Source: a virus. Taken from it: 40,116 bases of DNA. The stretch's first letter is position 1; every line of letters starts with the position of its first letter. The translations under genes were made by a program, and so were the position numbers. This document shows, piece by piece, positions 1-17,057 of the stretch. The notes under the pieces are model-generated. The model had not been told where the DNA came from, did no database searches, and saw nothing but the letters and a program-made list of their open reading frames with translations. The stretch lies in the UHGV virus genome UHGV-1361477, one strand, 5' to 3'.

Positions 1-105
1 ATTCCAGGTTGCTATCGTGAATGGATATTCACCGCCGAGAGCTTTCTCTTGTAGGGCAGCACGGGAACGCATCACCTGCAAAACCTTCTCTTTTACATCC
101 ATCAT
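1..105 (-). CDS. hypothetical protein, N-terminal part (continues past window start; in frame with ORF at 39961-40116)
   Basis: ATG at 105 overlaps stop of the 102-1316 gene (ATGATGA); open frame runs to position 1 with no stop. Confidence 0.45.
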   Translation of the reverse strand, partial: MMDVKEKVLQVMRSRAALQEKALGGEYPFTIATWN

Positions 106-1316
106 TTCGCCTCCTGTGGCGGTTCTGGTAGCGGCATCCAGTGTGACGGTTTCCACGACGCACCAGGAATTATCCACCCATCATTAGCGTCAGGATGACC
201 CGGGATGTAAGTCGCCCATTTCATTCGCCAGTCACCTTTCCTGTCAAACTCCACGGCAACAAGAACGGCTGTTTTGGTATCCGGCATTCGCTCACTACAG
301 CTTATCCAACCATCCGGAGTTACCGGAGAATTTCCATTTACCAAGTCAGCTCGAACATATAGCGTGTCATCATGGTGCTGATTGTGGCTGCACCACGTTA
401 ATTCGCTTAACTCGCCATCTTCTGGCCATACTCCAGCTGTTTGCAGCCAGATATGGGCTGGCGCATCCTGGCAAGGTGTATTAACTGGAAACTTGTAAGT
501 TTGGCTTACAGGTTGGCTACCCTGAAGCATGGCAGCGTGGCAGGCATACTCAACGCCCTTAACTGCATCTGCGCAGTAGTTATAGCGATTGCATTCCACT
601 AATTTCCGTTTGAGTTTTTCAATTGCCTGCCCGACATCAGCCTGTATTTCCGGAACTGGCGGAACGGCTGTCTGCTGCTCTCGAACGTCATTAGTCGCTA
701 TCGGTTCTGCTGCCAACTGACTGGCATATTTGTTAATGGTAACGATAAGCTCTTGCTCAGCCTCATCCAGACAATCACCGATACCTCGTCTGTCGCCGTC
801 AAAATCATCGAAATCGGCATGAATCTTGGCAACCTTCAGGATTGCGGACAACACCTCACTAGGAATTACCGGATAGTTGGTTGACGTTTCCGCGATTTCC
901 CGAAAATTATTGGTTGACGAATTCTTATTTTCCCGAAAGTTTCCGGACTGAAGCATGGCGGCGCGGCAGGCGTTCCAGCCAGCTGTTCGCCCAAGCGCGT
1001 AAACTTCAGATGGCTCAAGATAATCAATGTCATGCCCGTCCTCATCGTCGTTCTCAGGTAATGCAGCAGGTACTACCGGTACTGGCGGAGCGGCGTAGAC
1101 TTCAATAATCCCATTATCAATAGGCCATTCTCCATCCTTGAGATAGTCACTTGTGCCGTCAACTTGCTGTTCAGCAATGTGGAATGCACCAACTGGCTCT
1201 GCCTCAAGCGAGGCCAGTGCAATCCGTGCCAGTTCCATTTGTTCGCCACGGGTAAGTCCGTTTTCAAGCGGATTTTTAATGAACAATTCAATACGTTCTT
1301 TGGTAATAGTGGTCAT
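102..1316 (-). CDS. early-region protein with C-terminal DUF551-like domain
   Basis: 404 aa ORF; C-terminal WxPxxHWMPLPEPP motif recalled as DUF551; internal protein repeat (CRAAMLQ / CHAAMLQ) matched by DNA repeat near 529-552 and 951-974; stop/start overlap with neighbours. Confidence 0.55.
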   Translation of the reverse strand: MTTITKERIELFIKNPLENGLTRGEQMELARIALASLEAEPVGAFHIAEQQVDGTSDYLKDGEWPIDNGIIEVYAAPPVPVVPAALPENDDEDGHDIDYLEPSEVYALGRTAGWNACRAAMLQSGNFRENKNSSTNNFREIAETSTNYPVIPSEVLSAILKVAKIHADFDDFDGDRRGIGDCLDEAEQELIVTINKYASQLAAEPIATNDVREQQTAVPPVPEIQADVGQAIEKLKRKLVECNRYNYCADAVKGVEYACHAAMLQGSQPVSQTYKFPVNTPCQDAPAHIWLQTAGVWPEDGELSELTWCSHNQHHDDTLYVRADLVNGNSPVTPDGWISCSERMPDTKTAVLVAVEFDRKGDWRMKWATYIPGHPDANDGWIIPGASWKPSHWMPLPEPPQEAK

Positions 1317-4330: not shown

Positions 4331-4813
4331 TTATTTGATAAGAAGTGAAGGTTTCCCAACCTTGAGTTGAGCGCCTGGGATATTTATTCCTGCTTTTAGT
4401 TGGTGCTTGATTGCCAACTTGTCGGCTTTAATTGTCGTTTCAAACTCAACGTATTCATGAGGAAGGGCGCTTGAGTCGATGATTTCTACAGTTTCTGACG
4501 GTTTTCTGATTGTTACCTGGTGAATACCTGCTCGAATCTTTTTCTTGCCAACCATTTCAAGCGATGACGCTATATATGATTTGATGCTGTCAATCTTATT
4601 TTGAATTACTGTGGCTCGCTCATTCAGTGACTTTGCCTCTTCCTTGAGGCGTTCGGCATAACCAGATTCATTTTTAATGACGGAAAGAAGTTGCTCTATT
4701 TTATCGGTAAATTCTCCTTCCATGCCTTCTATTGTGTCAGCAATCATCTCTGGTTCTAAATCTGAATCCATCAATTTTGCGTATTCATTGGCAATTTCAT
4801 ACAGTTTGCTCAC
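4331..4813 (-). CDS. Gp157-family protein
   Basis: GTG start at 4813 after GGAGG; N-terminus SKLYEIANEYAKLMD resembles siphovirus Gp157 family, commonly next to recT. Confidence 0.55.
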   Translation of the reverse strand: MSKLYEIANEYAKLMDSDLEPEMIADTIEGMEGEFTDKIEQLLSVIKNESGYAERLKEEAKSLNERATVIQNKIDSIKSYIASSLEMVGKKKIRAGIHQVTIRKPSETVEIIDSSALPHEYVEFETTIKADKLAIKHQLKAGINIPGAQLKVGKPSLLIK

Positions 4814-5699
4814 TGGCAACCTCCAGTTTCGCTTTGCATTCTATGTAAATGGCTTGTACGTTCTGCTGCAATTTCATTCCAGATGTCAGGCGATATGCTT
4901 CTGCAAAATATCGCTTCAAATCATCCATGTTTTCTGCCTGAGCCATTTCATCGCAAAGAAGTTGTGCTTTATCCATTATTTCCTGCTGGCGTTTCCGTTC
5001 ATCTTCGCGGATATCTTCCTCTGATTTGTGCGGCATAACTGGTTCCTGATGCATACCTTCATCTTCGTTAAGCAGGTGAATGGCATTATCCAGTCGCTGG
5101 GCTTTAGGCCAGTATTTGCTGGCGCGTTTAACTATTGTTTTACGCGCCATCTCTTCCCAGAATGTTTTCCACGGTCCATTCTTTGCCTTGCTCGTTGCTT
5201 CCACAGCTTTAATTTCTGCCAGACTCATTTCTTCAGTCAGGTAGTCACCATCTGCTGTTTTAACCGTGCAATAACCTCCAACAATAGAGCCTCGCTCACC
5301 AAATGCGTTGTATTTGTGGGTTGGTGCTGAATCAAGGCCATTTGATTCATAGGTGTCGTTTGAGTACACCAGTTTGCATTGCCCCCACTTAATTGATCCT
5401 GTCGATTGCGCAAGATGAAGTAATCCCATGTAACTGATATCAAGGCACACCATGCCGTCGCGAGGAACCAGATAAGCCAGTTTGCTGGCCGGGTTTAAGG
5501 TGATGCCGATCGCCGCAACATTGATGATGGCGTTCTGTGCGCTGGTTGGATTTGCCAGTGCTGTTTTAGCCAGGTAATCGTTTTTCTGGAAATACTGAAT
5601 TGCAAACTGGCTTTCCTTAGCCCATGTCACCGTCTGTTCAGTCAATGCTCCGCAGAATAACTGCTCTTGCTGTTTAACGAATTCAACGATATTGCTCAT
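4797..5699 (-). CDS. recT: RecT-family single-strand annealing recombinase
   Basis: 300 aa; motif GPWKTFWEEMARKTIVKRASKYWP matches E. coli RecT GPWVTHWEEMAKKTAIRRLFKYLP. Confidence 0.85.
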   Translation of the reverse strand: MSNIVEFVKQQEQLFCGALTEQTVTWAKESQFAIQYFQKNDYLAKTALANPTSAQNAIINVAAIGITLNPASKLAYLVPRDGMVCLDISYMGLLHLAQSTGSIKWGQCKLVYSNDTYESNGLDSAPTHKYNAFGERGSIVGGYCTVKTADGDYLTEEMSLAEIKAVEATSKAKNGPWKTFWEEMARKTIVKRASKYWPKAQRLDNAIHLLNEDEGMHQEPVMPHKSEEDIREDERKRQQEIMDKAQLLCDEMAQAENMDDLKRYFAEAYRLTSGMKLQQNVQAIYIECKAKLEVASEQTV

Positions 5700-9636: not shown

Positions 9637-10528
9637 CATATCTAATCTAGCCGAAGCCAGAGAGGCCAGAAGGCTCCAACAACCGCATCAAAGCAGCGGT
9701 AAGGGGTATGCCTTGCTGCACCGTAAAATTATGGATGTGCCGTTTTACAAGGACGCAGAAGCAGCGCATCTGTGGGTTCACTTAATCCTCAAAGCAAAGC
9801 ATACGCCTGAGTATGTAATGACTGACGCAGGAGAAATTCTGGTAGGCAGAGGGAAGCTACTTGGTGGTAGAAACTCTCTGGCGTTTGAAACAGGACTCAA
9901 ACCAGATCGCGTTCAGTACCTGCTTAGAAAGTTCAAAAAACTCGGCATGATTGACTGGGTTTCACACGGTAAATTCTCAGTTTTCTCGGTAGAGAAATAT
10001 GACGATTATCAGTCAAATTTTGTACCAGCAGATTACCAGCAAATTACCACCTCAAAGCCAGCAATACCAATGCCTGCAAGCAATACTGTACCAGCAGATT
10101 ACCAGCAAATTACCACAGATAAAGAATATAATAATATTATCTCTAATACTGACGTATTAGAGAGTACCGCAGCAGACAAAAAGTCTGACAAGAAAAAACC
10201 TTCCGTTAGCTGTCAGGATGTTGTCGATGCTTACCACGAAATCCTTCCTGAAGCGCCAAGAATCCGCGCACTGAATGACAAGCGTAAAAACCAGATCCGA
10301 ACGTTCTGGCGCAAAGCCGGAGTGATAACCCGACAGCTTGACGGGCATGGTTTCACGATGCAGGACTGGAGAAATTATTTGAGCTACGTTGGCGAAAATT
10401 GCCGATGGATGTTCGAAGAGCGCCCAAACCATCAACGCGGAACCGTCTGGCACAAAAAGGGATTTGATTTCCTGCTTAACGATAATACCTACCTGAAAGT
10501 TCGTGAGGGTGAACACGATGACCGATAA
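9629..10528 (+). CDS. replication initiator (O-like replisome organiser)
   Basis: 299 aa; position between cII and helicase; contains internal iterons; N-terminal HTH-like region. Confidence 0.75.
10021..10150. repeat. putative ori: two perfect 30-bp iterons plus AT-rich tract inside O-like gene
   Basis: TGTACCAGCAGATTACCAGCAAATTACCAC at 10021-10050 and 10087-10116, followed by AT-rich 10117-10150; encodes [10 protein letters not shown] twice. Confidence 0.55.
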
Positions 10529-11954
10529 TTTTTATGCGCCGCCCCATAGCATCGAGGCAGAGCAGGCGGTGATTGGTGGATTGCTTCTGGATGATGACAG
10601 CAGTGAGCGCGTCCAGAAAGTTCTGGCGATGCTGAAGCCTGATTCATTTTACAGCCGACCACACAAAATCCTTTTCGAAGAAATAACCAGAATGCACCGG
10701 GAGCAAAAGCCAGTAGATGGCCTGACGCTTTTCGATGAACTGGAGCGTAAATCGTTAACGGCGTCTGTTGGCGGTTTTGCTTATATCGCTGAGATCGCAA
10801 AGAACACGCCAAGCGCCGCAAACATCGTTGCCTATGCAATGCAGGTTCGCGAAACCGCAATGGAACGCTACGCCATCAACCGCATGACTGAAGCGACGGA
10901 ATTGCTCTATTCCCGCAACGGAATGACTGCGACGCAGAAGTACGAAGCTATTCAGGCGATTTTCACGCAACTGACAGACCATGCAAAAACCGGATCGCGT
11001 CGCGGCCTTCGCTCATTTGGCGAGGTCATGGAAGACTGGGTTAGCGACCTTGAGAAGCGATTTGACCCGTCAGGCGAACAGCGAGGAATGAGCACAGGCA
11101 TCCCATCGCTGGACAGGATGCTGTCACCGAAAGGTCTGGTGAAAGGCTCTCTGTTTGTCATTGGCGCTCGCCCTAAGATGGGGAAAACGACGCTATACAG
11201 CCAGATGGCAATCAACTGCGCAGTGCATGAGAAAAAGCCCGCTCTGATGTTCAGCCTTGAAATGCCAGGTGACCAGATACTGGAAAAACTGGTAGGGCAG
11301 AAGTCAGGTGTTAACCCGAATATTTTTTACCTTCCGGCGACAAATGACGCTGATGACGGCTATCAGGGTGATTACGATGGTGACTTCAACAGGGCGATCG
11401 AAACAGCCAATCGCTTGAGTGAAATCGACATGCTTTACATCGACGACACGCCGGGATTATCTCTGGCTCAAATCGTCAGCGAAAGCCGTCGAATCAAGCG
11501 AGAAAAAGGATGTGTTGGCATGATTCTGGTCGATTACCTGACACTAATGACCGCTGAGAAGGCCGATCGCAACGACCTTGCTTACGGCATGATCACCAAA
11601 GGACTGAAGAACCTTGCCAAAGAGCTTGATTGCGTTGTTGTGCTTCTGACACAGCTTAACCGCGCACTGGAAAGCCGAACCAATAAACGCCCATTACCAA
11701 GTGACTCACGAGATACAGGGCAGATTGAACAGGATTGCGATTATTGGGTGGGGATCCATCGTGAAGGTGCTTTTGATGACAGTGTTCCACCTGGTGAAAC
11801 CGAACTAATCCTTCGTCTCAATCGTCATGGCAATACCGGCACGGTGTATTGCATTCAGGCAAATGGCGCTATTTATGACACAGACCAACAGTCTGCTGAA
11901 ATGCGCCGCCGTGAACGCGAGGAACCGCAATCCAAGAAGAAAGGAGGATTCTGA
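10518..11954 (+). CDS. replicative DNA helicase (DnaB family)
   Basis: 478 aa from ATG 10518; DnaB N-terminal domain and Walker A GARPKMGKT; overlaps O stop. Confidence 0.9.
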   Translation: MTDNFYAPPHSIEAEQAVIGGLLLDDDSSERVQKVLAMLKPDSFYSRPHKILFEEITRMHREQKPVDGLTLFDELERKSLTASVGGFAYIAEIAKNTPSAANIVAYAMQVRETAMERYAINRMTEATELLYSRNGMTATQKYEAIQAIFTQLTDHAKTGSRRGLRSFGEVMEDWVSDLEKRFDPSGEQRGMSTGIPSLDRMLSPKGLVKGSLFVIGARPKMGKTTLYSQMAINCAVHEKKPALMFSLEMPGDQILEKLVGQKSGVNPNIFYLPATNDADDGYQGDYDGDFNRAIETANRLSEIDMLYIDDTPGLSLAQIVSESRRIKREKGCVGMILVDYLTLMTAEKADRNDLAYGMITKGLKNLAKELDCVVVLLTQLNRALESRTNKRPLPSDSRDTGQIEQDCDYWVGIHREGAFDDSVPPGETELILRLNRHGNTGTVYCIQANGAIYDTDQQSAEMRRREREEPQSKKKGGF

Positions 11955-11983
11955 TGACCATCTACATCACTGAGCTAATAACA

Positions 11984-12014
11984 GGCCTGCTGGTAATCGC
12001 AGGCCTTTTTATTT
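11984..12014 (+). terminator. candidate intrinsic terminator (or part of a 27-codon hydrophobic ORF)
   Basis: GGCCTGC-tggtaatc-GCAGGCC then TTTTTATTT; same bases lie inside ORF 11954-12037. Confidence 0.5.
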
Positions 12015-12029
12015 GGGGGAGGGTAAATC

Positions 12030-12236
12030 GTGGCTGAGTTAATTTTCTCTGCATTGAGGATTCTCGGTGCTATGTGGATGGTGGCGACGTTCATTGTTGT
12101 TGCCAGAAGTTTTGTCCGGTTGGTAGGCGAAGGTAAAGACCTGGTAGGTGTGCTTTTCGGTAGCATTTTCCTGTGGGTGATTATCGGTGTTATGCCTGTC
12201 GCTGTAGCAAAAATGGCGTGGCGTTTTGTGAGTTGA
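12030..12236 (+). CDS. small membrane protein (2 predicted TM helices)
   Basis: GTG start after GGAGG; hydrophobic segments. Confidence 0.5.
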   Translation: MAELIFSALRILGAMWMVATFIVVARSFVRLVGEGKDLVGVLFGSIFLWVIIGVMPVAVAKMAWRFVS

Positions 12237-12253
12237 ACTGATGGTAAATATCG

Positions 12254-12574
12254 ATGGACGAATCAAGAAAGCAGTTTGAAGAAAGTTGGTTGCGACGTGG
12301 AGGCGAATCCTCAGACCTTATCCGTTACCCTGAAAATCACCATGAAATTGGCAGTGGTAATATTGGTGGTCAATACGTGATGGACGATGTTCAAGGCCAC
12401 TGGCAAACGTGGCAGGCATCGCGATCAGCTATTGAAATAACCGCGCCAAAGTTTATCGACAGCAGAGAAGCATTAGCCAAAGGGTTTACTGTTGATTATT
12501 CCAATGGCTTCGGTGATGCAATGGATGCTTATGAGGAAAACATCCGCGCTGCTGGAATCAAAGTGAAGGAGTGA
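12254..12574 (+). CDS. hypothetical protein, paralog A (MDESRKQFEE family)
   Basis: 106 aa; shares N-terminus MDESRKQFEE, central WQASR(S/A)AIE and C-terminal IRAAGIK with ORF 13032-13388. Confidence 0.6.
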   Translation: MDESRKQFEESWLRRGGESSDLIRYPENHHEIGSGNIGGQYVMDDVQGHWQTWQASRSAIEITAPKFIDSREALAKGFTVDYSNGFGDAMDAYEENIRAAGIKVKE

Positions 12575-12576
12575 GC

Positions 12577-12762
12577 ATGAGTCGACGAAGTAGCTTTTTG
12601 GGGTTTGTAATATTCCTGTCCTGCACTGGTTACATCGTAATCTGGTCAATTTCGAACATTGACCGTGGCGGGGAATATCTCATTGTAATGTTCTTTCCTT
12701 TGTTTCTTGGGTGGTACGCCGCAAGGTTGCTGGAAGAATGGGGTTACAGGCATAAAAAATAA
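12577..12762 (+). CDS. small membrane protein (2 TM)
   Basis: ATG after AAGGAG; hydrophobic. Confidence 0.5.
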   Translation: MSRRSSFLGFVIFLSCTGYIVIWSISNIDRGGEYLIVMFFPLFLGWYAARLLEEWGYRHKK

Positions 12763-12821
12763 AGGAGTGTTCAGTGAAGCAAACCCTTTTTTATTGGATT
12801 AAGAGCGAGTGGTAAGTACCG

Positions 12822-13004
12822 ATGGTAAATGCATTTATTTGTAGTTTATTTCTTGTCGCGATTTTTCATGGATTCCTTCTGATGATGAGTTTTGTTCTCT
12901 GGAATAATGGATATCGCATATTGGGAGTAGGTTTTGTTTTACGGTTTTCAGTTGTCTGCGCGTTGCTACCGATAATTATGGCGACTATCAAATATTATTG
13001 GTAA
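12822..13004 (+). CDS. small membrane protein (2 TM), AT-rich
   Basis: 60 aa hydrophobic ORF; AT-rich. Confidence 0.45.
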   Translation: MVNAFICSLFLVAIFHGFLLMMSFVLWNNGYRILGVGFVLRFSVVCALLPIIMATIKYYW

Positions 13005-13031
13005 CCCAAAAAATCATCGATGGAGAGTGAT

Positions 13032-13388
13032 ATGGACGAATCAAGAAAGCAGTTTGAGGAATACGTTGCCAAAAAATTGAGATTACCATTCGAGATGATA
13101 ACCGAGGCAAGAAATGGTGATAGGTACTTCGCATTTTCAAGCATGGATATTCGTCACTCCTTAAATGAGTGGTGGACTTTATGGCAGGCATCGCGAGCAG
13201 CTATTGAACTGGATATCGACTGGCCAGAATCGAATGACGACTTTTGGAAAGATGGTGAAGAAGGTGCTTATGCGATGGGTTATGAGGATGGGCGTGACAA
13301 AACGGTAATTGCAGTAATGAAAGCTATCAGAGCCGCTGGAATTAAAGAGAAGAATTTCGATGAAGCAAACAATATTCCTCCGAACTAA
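13032..13388 (+). CDS. hypothetical protein, paralog B (MDESRKQFEE family)
   Basis: ATG 13032 after GGAGAGTGAT; paralogous to 12254-12574. Confidence 0.6.
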   Translation: MDESRKQFEEYVAKKLRLPFEMITEARNGDRYFAFSSMDIRHSLNEWWTLWQASRAAIELDIDWPESNDDFWKDGEEGAYAMGYEDGRDKTVIAVMKAIRAAGIKEKNFDEANNIPPN

Positions 13389-13770
13389 GCAACAACAGCA
13401 AGCCGCAATCAACGCCATCCTCGCAACACCACTCGATAAAGACAAGCCAGTCACCATCCGCATTACTGACTACAAGCGCAACCTTGACCAGAACGCAAAA
13501 TTTCACGCGATGCTGGCGGATATCGCTCGTCAGGTTCAATGGTGCGGCAAATGGTTAAAACCAGAACAATGGAAGGTTTTGTTGATCAGCGGTCATGCAG
13601 TGGCAACAAAACAGGAAGCTGATGTTTTGCCCGGGCTTGAAGGCGAATACGTCAACATTCGCGAAAGCAGCGCGCAGATGAGTGTGAAGCGTATGGCAAG
13701 TCTTATCGAGTACACAACAGCCTGGGCTATTGGTCATGGTGTCAGATTTACCGACAGGAGGTACGAATGA
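13360..13770 (+). CDS. ninB: NinB (Orf) recombination protein
   Basis: 136 aa; [25 protein letters not shown] resembles lambda NinB LDQNRKLWACLGDVSRQVEWHGRWL. Confidence 0.8.
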
Positions 13771-13943
13771 GACGACAGCGACGAAGTATCACCGACATCA
13801 TCTGCGAAAACTGCAAATACCTTCCAACGAAACGCTCCAGAAATAAACGCAAGCCAATCCCAAAAGAATCTGACGTAAAAACCTTCAACTACACGGCTCA
13901 CCTGTGGGATATCCGGTGGCTAAGACATCGTGCGAGGAAATGA
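13767..13943 (+). CDS. ninE: NinE
   Basis: 58 aa [20 protein letters not shown]... matches lambda NinE by recall; ATGA coupling. Confidence 0.7.
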
Positions 13944-14329
13944 CAATGGATTATTCACAGTTAAGTGATTTTGAAATTAACGTGGCGGTATTCGAAGCCA
14001 TTCATAACGGATCACCGGATTACAAAGAAGGTGAGAATGGCGCGATGGTGTTTATCTCATTTGAGGGAGACATTGTAAACGGAGACGCAGTTGAAGTAGA
14101 GGTTGAGCGCGGATCCTTTAACCCATGCGCAAACCCAGCAGACGCATGGCCGATTATCACTGAAAACAACATCAGCATAATTTTAGACAATCCCTCAATG
14201 CCGTGCGCTACAGACAACGCAAGGGACTTGTTTGATGATGCCGGACCGAATGTTGGTGTCGCATATGACAATCCACTCCGTGCCGCCATGATTGTCTTTC
14301 TCATGATGCAGGACGCCAATAATGCTTAG
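13940..14329 (+). CDS. NinX-like protein
   Basis: 129 aa from ATG 13940; [13 protein letters not shown]-terminus typical of NinX (DUF2591) by recall. Confidence 0.5.
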
Positions 14330-15213: not shown

Positions 15214-15503
15214 TGGCTAACCTACGCAAAGAAGCGCGCGGAAGAGAATGCCAGGTACGTATTTACGGCGTATGCAATGGCAATCCTGAAACCACAGTTC
15301 TGGCACATTACCGGATGGCTGGAATTTGCGGAACGGGAATGAAGCCTGACGACCTGATCGGCGCATGGGCTTGTAGTGACTGCCACGCGGAGATCGACCG
15401 ACGCACCCGGATTCTCGACAACAAAGACGCCAGACTTTACCACCTCGAAGGCGTGATCAGGACGCAGGCGATACTGCTGAAGGAGGGGAAGATTAAGTCA
15501 TGA
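15213..15503 (+). CDS. YbcO-like DUF1364 protein (putative nuclease)
   Basis: 96 aa MANLRKEARGRECQVRIYGVCNGNPETTVLAH... four Cys; matches E. coli DLP12 YbcO by recall. Confidence 0.7.
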   Translation: MANLRKEARGRECQVRIYGVCNGNPETTVLAHYRMAGICGTGMKPDDLIGAWACSDCHAEIDRRTRILDNKDARLYHLEGVIRTQAILLKEGKIKS

Positions 15504-16024
15504 ACGGTAAAAGATATCCAACACAAAAAGAAATCAATGAATTGTATGAATATAATAGCGAAACAGGTTTGTTTATATACAAGAGAAGAGAAAGTGTAAG
15601 AGAGTGCTGGAATTCAACATATGCCGGTAAGATTGCTGGTTCTATAGATGAAAAAGGATACGTTCGTATATCTGTAAATAAAAAAGTTTGTCGAGCTCAT
15701 AGAATCGCATGGATATCCTTTTATGGAAGTGAACCTGATGGGGAAATTGACCACATAAATGGAGTTAAAAGCGATAACAGAATATGCAATTTGCGCGTTG
15801 TAGATGATAAACAGAACTCAAGGAACAGAAAAAAGCCTATTAATAATCGCTCTGGAGTAATGGGGGTTGCCTACTATAAGAAGAATAAAAAGTGGGGCGC
15901 ATATATAAACAGTGATAATAAAAAGATATTTCTTGGATTATACGATGACATATCTCTAGCCGTTAATGCCAGAAAATTGGCGGAATCACGATTGGGGTAT
16001 CACCATAATCATGGGAGAGGATAA
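15500..16024 (+). CDS. HNH homing endonuclease (HNH + AP2-like domain)
   Basis: 174 aa; HRIAW...IDHINGVKSDNRICNLRVV HNH motif; strongly AT-rich; sits between ybcO-like and rusA. Confidence 0.75.
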   Translation: MNGKRYPTQKEINELYEYNSETGLFIYKRRESVRECWNSTYAGKIAGSIDEKGYVRISVNKKVCRAHRIAWISFYGSEPDGEIDHINGVKSDNRICNLRVVDDKQNSRNRKKPINNRSGVMGVAYYKKNKKWGAYINSDNKKIFLGLYDDISLAVNARKLAESRLGYHHNHGRG

Positions 16025-16387: not shown

Positions 16388-16572
16388 ACGCCACAATTCA
16401 AACGATACCAGAGCTTCTTATCCAGACACGAGGCAATCAGACCGAAGTGGCAAGGATGCTTTCCTGCGCAAGAGGAACAGTGCTCAAGTACAACCGAGAC
16501 AGCAAAGGCGAGCGTCATGTAATAGTTAACGGCGTCCTGATGGTCAAACAGGGCAAGAGGGGAAGACGATGA
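16384..16572 (+). CDS. ninH: NinH
   Basis: 62 aa; GNQTEVARMLSCARGTV...VNGVLMV resembles lambda NinH. Confidence 0.65.
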   Translation: MNATIQTIPELLIQTRGNQTEVARMLSCARGTVLKYNRDSKGERHVIVNGVLMVKQGKRGRR

Positions 16573-17057
16573 GCATAAGAGAACTAAACCTCACCAAAGA
16601 GCAGCACGATTGGCTGAATGGCTGGCTTGAACTGTGGGGAGCATGGGTTTATTCAGGTCGTCTTGAAAAGCGCATGAGCAGCGTAATAGCGAAGTTCATG
16701 GAGAGCGTAGAGCCGGGAAGAGTTATGACAAGGCCAATGTGCAATGATGATGATGGAATGTTGATTTCTCAGGTCGTCGATTCCGTCATGTACATTGACA
16801 AGAAAGCCTTTGGCATCCTCCTCAGCTACTACGCTCATGGATCTTCCAAGCACGCCATTGCATCTTACTATCATCGTGTCGCAAGACCTCGCAAGATGTT
16901 ATGCCGTGGCGGCGGGCGCATTCAAAAACCATCGCTCGCAACCTGTCGCCGGGAAGTTGACGAAATCCTCAATGCCTCGTTGTTTATGATTTATCCGGTT
17001 CTGGATAGTGCGTTTAAAAACCGGAAACGTGTAGATAAAATTAAACATGTAGCATAG
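16569..17057 (+). CDS. Q: late antiterminator Q (Phage_antitermQ family, not lambda-Q type)
   Basis: 162 aa; RPMCNDDDGMLI motif as in QuuD/Q21-type; directly upstream of late promoter region. Confidence 0.7.
   Translation: MSIRELNLTKEQHDWLNGWLELWGAWVYSGRLEKRMSSVIAKFMESVEPGRVMTRPMCNDDDGMLISQVVDSVMYIDKKAFGILLSYYAHGSSKHAIASYYHRVARPRKMLCRGGGRIQKPSLATCRREVDEILNASLFMIYPVLDSAFKNRKRVDKIKHVA

Follow-up and report, generated by a model that had tools for sequence, protein, structure and literature searches.

The viral genome UHGV-1361477, analyzed here over its full 40,116 nt (the window), raises the question of how two related soluble proteins came to be interleaved with small membrane proteins between a DnaB-like helicase gene and ninB (positions 12,030 to 13,388). 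An initial annotation had read this interval as a duplicated or inserted cassette flanked by a short direct repeat. The present analysis provides a different rationale. Positions 12030-13360 are the content of a hypervariable accessory-gene slot in an HK620/P22-like lambdoid phage, where five open reading frames (ORFs) and 1.33 kb are interposed between a tR2-like terminator and ninB. All five ORFs listed initially are real and lie where they had been placed; their order is m68, paralog A, m63, m60, paralog B, the m genes being the small hydrophobic ones. The region is an ordinary lambdoid mosaic, with no special repeat-flanked cassette. For the best explanation overall, comprising the mosaic slot, a crossover, the reassortment of alleles and the roles proposed for the genes, we estimate a probability of about 0.6. 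Within it, the structural and evolutionary account is held with high confidence; the functional part is a rather doubtful guess.

Two PF26207 alleles in one slot

Paralog A (12254-12574, + strand; 106 amino acids, aa; pI 4.9; net charge -7) and paralog B (13032-13388, + strand; 118 aa; pI 4.7; net charge -8) are related proteins, as had been proposed: they share 34% identity in BLASTP (E 4e-10) and both match the phrog_343 profile (E 3e-30 and 4e-32, respectively). Paralog B, which overlaps ninB by 29 nt, would be 122 aa long from an alternative ATG at 13020; its Shine-Dalgarno (SD) pairing is -6.8 for the ATG at 13032 versus -2.8 for that at 13020. The Pfam set used for scanning the ORFs was one without the PF26207 (Phage_phiTE_015) model; a precomputed assignment to this family exists on homologs 98% identical to B and on hybrids carrying A's halves. 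Furthermore, a near-identical homolog of B (99% over 117 aa) bears the RefSeq name 'phiTE_015 family protein', and a profile constructed from family members aligns with gp015 of Pectobacterium phage phiTE itself at an hhalign probability of 99.5 (E 2.5e-23). Both paralogs are full-length members of PF26207/PHROG 343 and of the same size as the rest (~95-120 aa). They contain the family's N-terminal SRxxFE, core W-x-A-S-R and C-terminal RAAG-x-K motifs, seen as an SRxQFExW helix, a WQASRAAIE core and an IRAAGIKVK end. In the family alignment F8, E9, and G101 are invariant, and R5, W53, A55, S56, R57, P65, and K105 are at least 90% conserved. A and B were the only members recovered by an HMM search of all ORFs in the whole window.

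PF26207 has no assigned function, and membership in it explains no mechanism. The family forms 583 clusters at 50% identity (E <= 1e-3), nearly all of them stand-alone proteins of 85-135 aa. When 1.84 billion representatives were searched with a profile for domain fusions, small stand-alone proteins again made up almost all of the matches, and Pfam scans of the longer ones yielded no match over the cut-off. Members occur in 148 phage records, including Shigella phage Sf6 (gp48), 933W (L0091), VT1-Sakai (H0045), mEp213, and mEp235, and the annotation reads 'hypothetical' in 45 of 45 sampled phage records. A literature search on phiTE_015, PF26207, DUF7301, and L0091/933W found no papers. Scans of six ORFs of the slot (with NinA, described below) against Pfam, NCBIfam, and PADLOC gave no informative match, and none at E <= 1 for the latter two; the sole weak Pfam match was Acyl_transf_3, at 15.4 bits against a cut-off of 31. 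Profile searches of PDB sequences with the paralogs returned only noise (E 0.5-2), and a fold search with a model of B (pLDDT 71.7) found no structural neighbor. The initial annotation could not place the pair; no characterized nin function matches it, and the family is catalogued yet uncharacterized. A match to a well-characterized nin family together with membrane ORFs lacking in all relatives, which would have spoken against that annotation, was not observed; the membrane ORFs are conserved in relatives.

An AlphaFold2 model of paralog A from a deeper alignment (pLDDT 87.9, pTM 0.73) contains helices at residues 2-14, 19-22, 44-59, 70-75, and 80-99 and short strands at 61-63 and 103-105, which in the model probably pair together. 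The conserved blocks make up its structural core; residues ~23-43, the first variable segment, are modeled as a loop of low confidence. The PF26207 scaffold comprises an N-terminal helix (MDESRKQFEE), a central helix and strand (WQASRAAIE), and a C-terminal helix and strand (IRAAGIKVK), carrying two variable segments. Many members elsewhere have, unlike A and B, a zinc-ribbon-like N-terminal extension; in relatives such as P0070, P0131, P0142, and P0230 it spans about 35 aa with a DnaJ-like CxxCxGxG ... CDC motif, and it has no Pfam match.

As here, the PF26207 gene lies just upstream of ninB in lambdoid phages from Escherichia, Salmonella, Hafnia, and Cronobacter; for Hafnia and Cronobacter this holds in lambdoid prophages. 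Most phages with the family have one copy, whereas the window phage has two different alleles in tandem. A Cronobacter prophage has an independent tandem pair of 134 and 76 aa (L098:2865-3804).

The two genes of the window are nearly identical in DNA at two short islands. The first, codons 1-10, is identical at 29 of 30 nt (12254-12283 and 13032-13061). The central island, which encodes WQASRxAIE in paralog A (12410-12436, + strand), is identical at 26 of 27 nt to 13182-13208. Outside these islands, only 100 of 255 nt agree (39%), and the shared IRAAGIK motif is written in differing codons (17/21 nt). This divergence rules out a recent duplication. The initial annotation is right in that two members of one family are interleaved with small hydrophobic ORFs ahead of ninB; its word "duplicated" is misleading. 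A combines the N-type 'SWLRRGGESSDL' with the short C-type 'ITAPKFID', and B the N-type 'YVAKKLRLPFEM' with the C-type 'LDIDWPES'. Judged from their sequences, the paralogs are different allelic types of PF26207 that were joined by recombination of two phage lineages, both of them extant.

Among 57 unique PF26207 genes drawn from about 100 related loci, seven N-terminal and eight C-terminal segment types (7 x 8) occur in 18 combinations. The DNA of the central island (TGGCAGGCATCGCGAGCAGCTATTGAA) is identical in 44 of 56 unique alleles. Phages Gally and HZ41, as well as an O166:H15 prophage, carry hybrids in which B's N-terminal segment is joined to A's C-terminal segment at this island. The reciprocal protein, with A's N-terminal and B's C-terminal segment (P0004), is the predicted deletion product and is also common. 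These combinations mark the central island as the recombination point between N and C cassettes. Hafnia and Cronobacter encode the same island peptide with different synonymous codons (16-21 of 27 nt agree), and two Cronobacter copies share lineage-specific DNA islands of their own. A functional element at the nucleotide level was ruled out as the reason for the islands, since other genera use different codons for the same peptide. For the same reason, island identity appears to be kept within each gene pool by recombination or homogenization. In the E. coli phage gene pool, the variable segments and neighboring small genes are swapped at islands of 26-30 nt. Rad52/RecT-type phage recombinases recombine diverged DNA and yield mosaics (PMC2327257, PMC3945230). 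The window encodes a RecT-family recombinase (4797-5699, - strand; PF03837, E 2.5e-33), and the island exchange would be driven by such relaxed homologous recombination of the phage's own.

How the second allele arrived can be read at position 12784/12785 (region 12770-12800, + strand), where a remnant of a ninB start on the left meets the 3' half of a Gally-type tR2-like terminator on the right. Positions 12770-12784 (TTCAGTGAAGCAAAC) duplicate the ninB start at 13356-13370, 11 nt of which are fused to the terminator half. From 12785 onward (CCCTTTTTTATTGG...) the sequence is that found ahead of m60 in Gally, where it makes up the 3' half of a tR2-like terminator. No hairpin is left in this broken terminator (fold -5.9 kcal/mol, z = +0.8). 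When a probe spanning the joint was compared with complete E. coli genomes, its left half alone ran on into annotated ninB, and its right half alone hit the terminator and m60; the joint itself occurs in 56 of 5426 genomes. Both parental arrangements, tR2-m68-PF26207-m63-ninB and tR2'-m60-PF26207-ninB, are found among 80 IMG/VR contigs, along with at least eight contigs of the window type. Microhomology at the joint is at most 1 nt. A single illegitimate crossover at 12784/12785 explains the tandem arrangement; it set m60 and paralog B behind m68, paralog A, and m63. An inserted segment, as suggested initially, does exist; it is m60 with paralog B (12785-13360) and not paralog A with one membrane gene.

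The ninB-start remnant (12774-12815) keeps a strong SD, AAAGGAG (-8.5 kcal/mol). Its GTG at 12774 opens a 13-codon ORF, MKQTLFYWIKSEW*, with a stop 6 nt ahead of the ATG of m60, and translation of m60 may be coupled to this ninB gene fossil.

As a whole, the window represents one complete (pro)phage of E. coli, lambdoid and HK620/P22-like. Across 54-58% of its first 25 kb it is ~96% identical to vB_EcoP-683R2 and HK620, the closest matches. Genes are present for an integrase, a P22-type tailspike head-binding domain, a CI-like repressor, RecT, a Q antiterminator, and a Rha/ANT antirepressor. The whole five-gene arrangement is rare, being at least 80% covered in 2 of 5426 complete E. coli genomes; parts of it occur in 2038 genomes.

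The terminator and the small hydrophobic ORFs

The left border of the slot is an intrinsic terminator, a hairpin with a T-tract (11983-12006; AGGCCTGC-TGGTAATC-GCAGGCCT then TTTTTATTT), matched by a terminator scan and folding as RNA at -16.2 kcal/mol (z = -3.4). Positions 11954-12020 differ from the lambda ren-ninB spacer by one mismatch, the match covering both hairpin and T-tract, and the terminator is essentially identical to a site in mEp235 annotated as a rho-independent terminator. The GC-rich hairpin, the T-tract, the homologous position, and the identity to lambda are all those of a lambda-type tR2.

A fourth hydrophobic ORF, overlooked initially, passes through this hairpin. It is NinA (11954-12037, + strand, 27 aa; phrog_5907, E 1.3e-18; named NinA in HK630), which overlaps the helicase stop by ATGA and has an SD pairing of -11.6 kcal/mol. 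Its 3' end overlaps or abuts the next gene, which is m68 in the window, ninB in lambda (L103:360-460), and m60 in Gally (L003:1501-1581). In Gally the hairpin sequence is different, yet the ORF is retained across the terminator. By its layout, NinA resembles a bridge that carries translation over an intrinsic terminator, where passing ribosomes might influence termination.

The three membrane ORFs described initially each have two hydrophobic segments by Kyte-Doolittle analysis, as had been claimed, and all are basic. The first, m68 (12030-12236, + strand, 68 aa, two transmembrane [TM] segments), matches phrog_1165 over residues 1-68 of 68 (E 2.2e-37) and is the commonest first gene after tR2 in relatives. 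Against alleles of 54-59% identity, its omega is 0.33-0.39 at dS ~1, with 0.8-1.0 in the other two frames, and its SD pairing is -11.8. On these comparisons m68 is a real gene under purifying selection. An identification of m68 as DUF7301 (PF23975) was ruled out, as the DUF7301 of relatives is a different, soluble, non-hydrophobic protein (basic, about 71-80 aa), and no slot ORF gave a Pfam match to it.

The second, m63 (12577-12762, + strand, 61 aa, two TM segments; 63 aa from a GTG start at 12571), begins on the stop region of paralog A (TGA 12572-12574) and is translationally coupled to it, with an SD of -8.3 for the ATG at 12577. Its omega is 0.19 at dS 1.0 against a 72%-identical allele that stands directly after the helicase in another phage (other frames 0.82 and 1.63). 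By this measure m63 too is a real gene under purifying selection. The family is small, with four protein clusters in 5.8 billion proteins, and in every complete E. coli genome examined, among them all those sampled that carry the m63|m60 joint, RefSeq/PGAP has left m63 without annotation. Homologous positions are present in the loci L001, L004, L005, and L006.

For m60 (12822-13004, + strand, 60 aa, two TM segments), the evidence is mixed, and it is here that an alternative has to be weighed. According to this alternative, the module is partly non-coding: m60, and possibly NinA, would be chance hydrophobic ORFs of T-rich spacer or terminator DNA, leaving m68, two PF26207 alleles, and m63. The omega of m60 is 0.64-0.85 from only 10-16 substitutions, which are as frequent at codon position 2 as at position 3. 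The region is AT-rich (36-38% GC), the SD in the window is weak (-4.9), no PHROG or Pfam match was obtained, only three near-identical protein clusters exist (80-98% identity), and RefSeq annotation does not call the ORF. The conservation of NinA, for its part, could be explained by the terminator it overlaps. On the other side, all m60 alleles have 60 codons, down to 80% identity, and those of Gally and the locus L009 have strong SDs (-8.7 and -8.9, respectively). The ORF is tightly packed between genes in three different contexts, lying 16-28 nt upstream of a PF26207 gene in every locus seen, and T is modestly enriched at its second codon positions (p = 0.02). We therefore consider m60 probably coding and the partly non-coding alternative unlikely, though it deserves real weight.

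The initial suggestion of an exclusion or toxin role for the membrane proteins found no direct support and nothing against it; none of the six slot ORFs matched defense, exclusion, or toxin-antitoxin models of PADLOC, Pfam, or NCBIfam. Class II holins pair two TM segments with a place in a lysis cassette next to the endolysin, whereas the slot ORFs belong to the early operon and precede ninB and Q. The candidate lysis genes of the window, so called by position and size only, are at ~17.9-19.1 kb.

Membrane partners and the direct repeat

Could the membrane proteins and PF26207 instead form a two-component module, for example a membrane-anchored complex or a toxin plus its neutralizer? The real cassette would then be m60-PF26207-m63, present here in one and a half copies. 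In Gally-type phages the tR2-ninB insert is exactly this trio. Everywhere m60 was seen, it lies 16-28 nt upstream of a PF26207 gene, with at least two different N-types. The start of m63 sits on the PF26207 stop region, and m63 follows 17 of 20 short-C-type alleles, which comprise four unalignable C-types, versus none of 82 alleles of the LDIDWPE type. In Cronobacter, moreover, an unrelated 47-aa ORF with two TM segments overlaps the start of a PF26207 gene. However, the commonest arrangement is PF26207 with neither m60 nor m63. Hafnia and phiTE members have no TM neighbor, and m63 also occurs without PF26207, directly after the helicase or after DUF7301. The TM genes are thus not obligate partners of PF26207, although the association is recurrent. 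Physical linkage to the recombination islands can account for it; m60 is without clear constraint, and there is no PADLOC or toxin-antitoxin match. Taken together, these observations make a two-component module improbable.

An alternative occupant of the slot, a protein of 106-108 aa with one N-terminal TM segment and no family match (L009:2674-2994, L006:1850-2176, L100:2174-2494), is placed between m68 and m60 or PF26207 in several prophages.

The repeat that was said to bracket the cassette is the 10-mer GATGGTAAAT. It does occur at 12240-12249 and 12821-12830 and nowhere else in the window. In dinucleotide shuffles of 12030-13388, however, repeated exact 10-mers number 1.2 on average, and 68% of the shuffles contain at least one. 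Of 103 related loci, only the window has the left copy. The linker between m68 and PF26207 has the canonical form ACTGAGGGTAAGTATCGATGG (at least 27 loci); two point substitutions in it create the left 10-mer, and the resulting form, ACTGATGGTAAATATCGATGG, is unique to the window. This mutated SD/start linker (12237-12256, + strand) leaves paralog A with an SD pairing of -3.1 kcal/mol versus -6.1 in the canonical linker. A genuine shared linker, GAGGGTAAGTAYCGATGG, precedes the ATG of both PF26207 genes and of m60. Since GATGGTAAAT is out of register with GAGGGTAAGTAYCGATGG, is at chance level, and has a left copy unique to the window, it marks no cassette boundary. The repeats that do carry meaning, namely the two islands and the duplicated ninB start, had not been picked out initially. 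A tandem duplication bounded by direct repeats calls for an above-chance repeat and for the same boundaries in relatives, and neither was found. In relatives, junctions fall at 12248-12254, at the two islands, at 12784/12785, and at 13360, and in none of them at 12821-12830. Thus, a recently duplicated or inserted cassette of paralog A and one membrane gene between copies of GATGGTAAAT is very improbable, even though the 10-mer stands exactly twice in 40 kb, when the match is expected by chance, its left copy stems from two window-only substitutions, and the paralogs have diverged so far outside the islands.

Compared with alleles elsewhere, single substitutions have weakened two ribosome-binding sites, that of paralog A from GAGGG to GATGG (12237-12256) and that of m60 from GAGGGG to GAGTGG (12803-12821). 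Selection on parts of the enlarged slot may have relaxed.

Possible expression, function, and place among known systems

The lambda nin region is a non-essential delayed-early pR operon. It has the same terminator, NinA frame, and ninB position as the window; in lambda, ninB follows directly after tR2. The slot genes are co-oriented, packed or overlapping, and downstream of tR2, and a promoter scan of 11800-13600 found no promoter-like site on the + strand. Because of these features, they would be delayed-early genes expressed only on antiterminated pR transcripts in lytic growth. As with the rest of the lambda nin region, growth in the laboratory would not require them. An Rfam scan of 11500-13900 returned nothing credible.

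The PF26207 proteins, being small and acidic with a conserved core and two exchangeable segments, may be cytoplasmic binding proteins with a diversifying specificity; their two variable surfaces would track a diversifying target in the host or in a competitor. By the positive-inside rule, m68, m63, and probably m60 are predicted to be independent inner-membrane hairpins with both termini inside (N-in/C-in). They would act on the envelope, exclusion or host modulation being the likeliest roles. T4 Imm and class II holins such as S21 offer an analogy only: they have, like the slot ORFs, 60-70 aa, two TM segments, and a predicted N-in/C-in hairpin. The slot ORFs share no sequence similarity with them and stand outside the lysis cassette, and nothing observed here points to exclusion or hole formation.

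In the virulent myovirus phiTE, a nin-like cluster (L105:4970-6666) consists of a NinX-like gene, a small winged-helix-like protein, PF26207, and a Lar-like restriction-alleviation gene. The position of PF26207 directly upstream of the Lar-like gene in this early accessory cluster weakly hints, by analogy, at a part in host interaction or anti-defense. Small winged-helix-like proteins also stand upstream of PF26207 in Hafnia, in Cronobacter, and in an E. coli O166 prophage. A far more speculative proposal, and one we regard as a long shot, is that PF26207 is a population-level system of combinatorial specificity. Its segments and the membrane genes would be shuffled at the islands in response to host defense or competitor phages. 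A tandem pair would then give broader specificity or a donor reservoir, and m63 would be a required partner of the short-C alleles.

Several points weigh against our explanation of the slot as a mosaic of independently acting genes. The recurrent order m60-PF26207-m63 could mean functional coupling beyond linkage, and the tight translational coupling of m63, its skew toward short-C alleles, and the ORF with two TM segments upstream of PF26207 in Cronobacter point the same way. Furthermore, m60 lacks clear purifying selection, and the proposed timing of expression leans on lambda biology by analogy.

Around the slot, the DnaB-like helicase gene (10503-11954) lies to the left. The right border is ninB, which encodes an Orf-type recombination mediator (13360-13770, + strand; PF05772, E 6e-56), and NinX (13904-14329) and the Q antiterminator (16569-17057) follow. 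Within the nin region, small nin genes and RusA flank a gene for an HNH_3 endonuclease (15500-16024). Since relatives carry Dam or no gene at this place, it is probably a mobile insertion of the homing type. Positions 102-1316 (- strand), where the early-left (ea) region ends, encode a 404-aa protein with a C-terminal DUF551 domain, the N-terminal 330 residues of which have no match. In one relative (L102:1-1882), the DnaB-type helicase exceeds 797 aa and has a LAGLIDADG_3 match between two DnaB_C matches; it likely contains an intein.

Much of what fills the slot is already known, namely PF26207, phrog_1165, the slot itself, the terminator, and the classical lambdoid mode of mosaic exchange. 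Boundary sequences in HK620 have reportedly been described by Clark and colleagues in 2001. In lambdoid phages, relaxed or short-homology recombination swaps modules where short sequences are conserved (Martinsohn et al. 2008, PMC2327257; De Paepe et al. 2014, PMC3945230), and the window phage, with one illegitimate joint and an encoded Rad52/RecT-type recombinase, resembles these mosaics. Unlike in usual mosaicism, two exchange points fall within a gene, where parts of the structural core are encoded, and protein segments are shuffled together with neighboring genes. It is a nice example and no new principle. What looked like a special repeat-flanked cassette turns out to be an everyday outcome of lambdoid mosaicism. 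With its joint at 12784/12785, the window offers a clean, datable case of an illegitimate crossover that made a tandem arrangement, which has since spread to ~1% of complete E. coli genomes, and m63 is a real gene that RefSeq annotation left out. PF26207, which is also found in Stx phages and Sf6 and whose segments reassort freely, is a good and tractable candidate in screens of the nin region for host-interaction or anti-defense functions.

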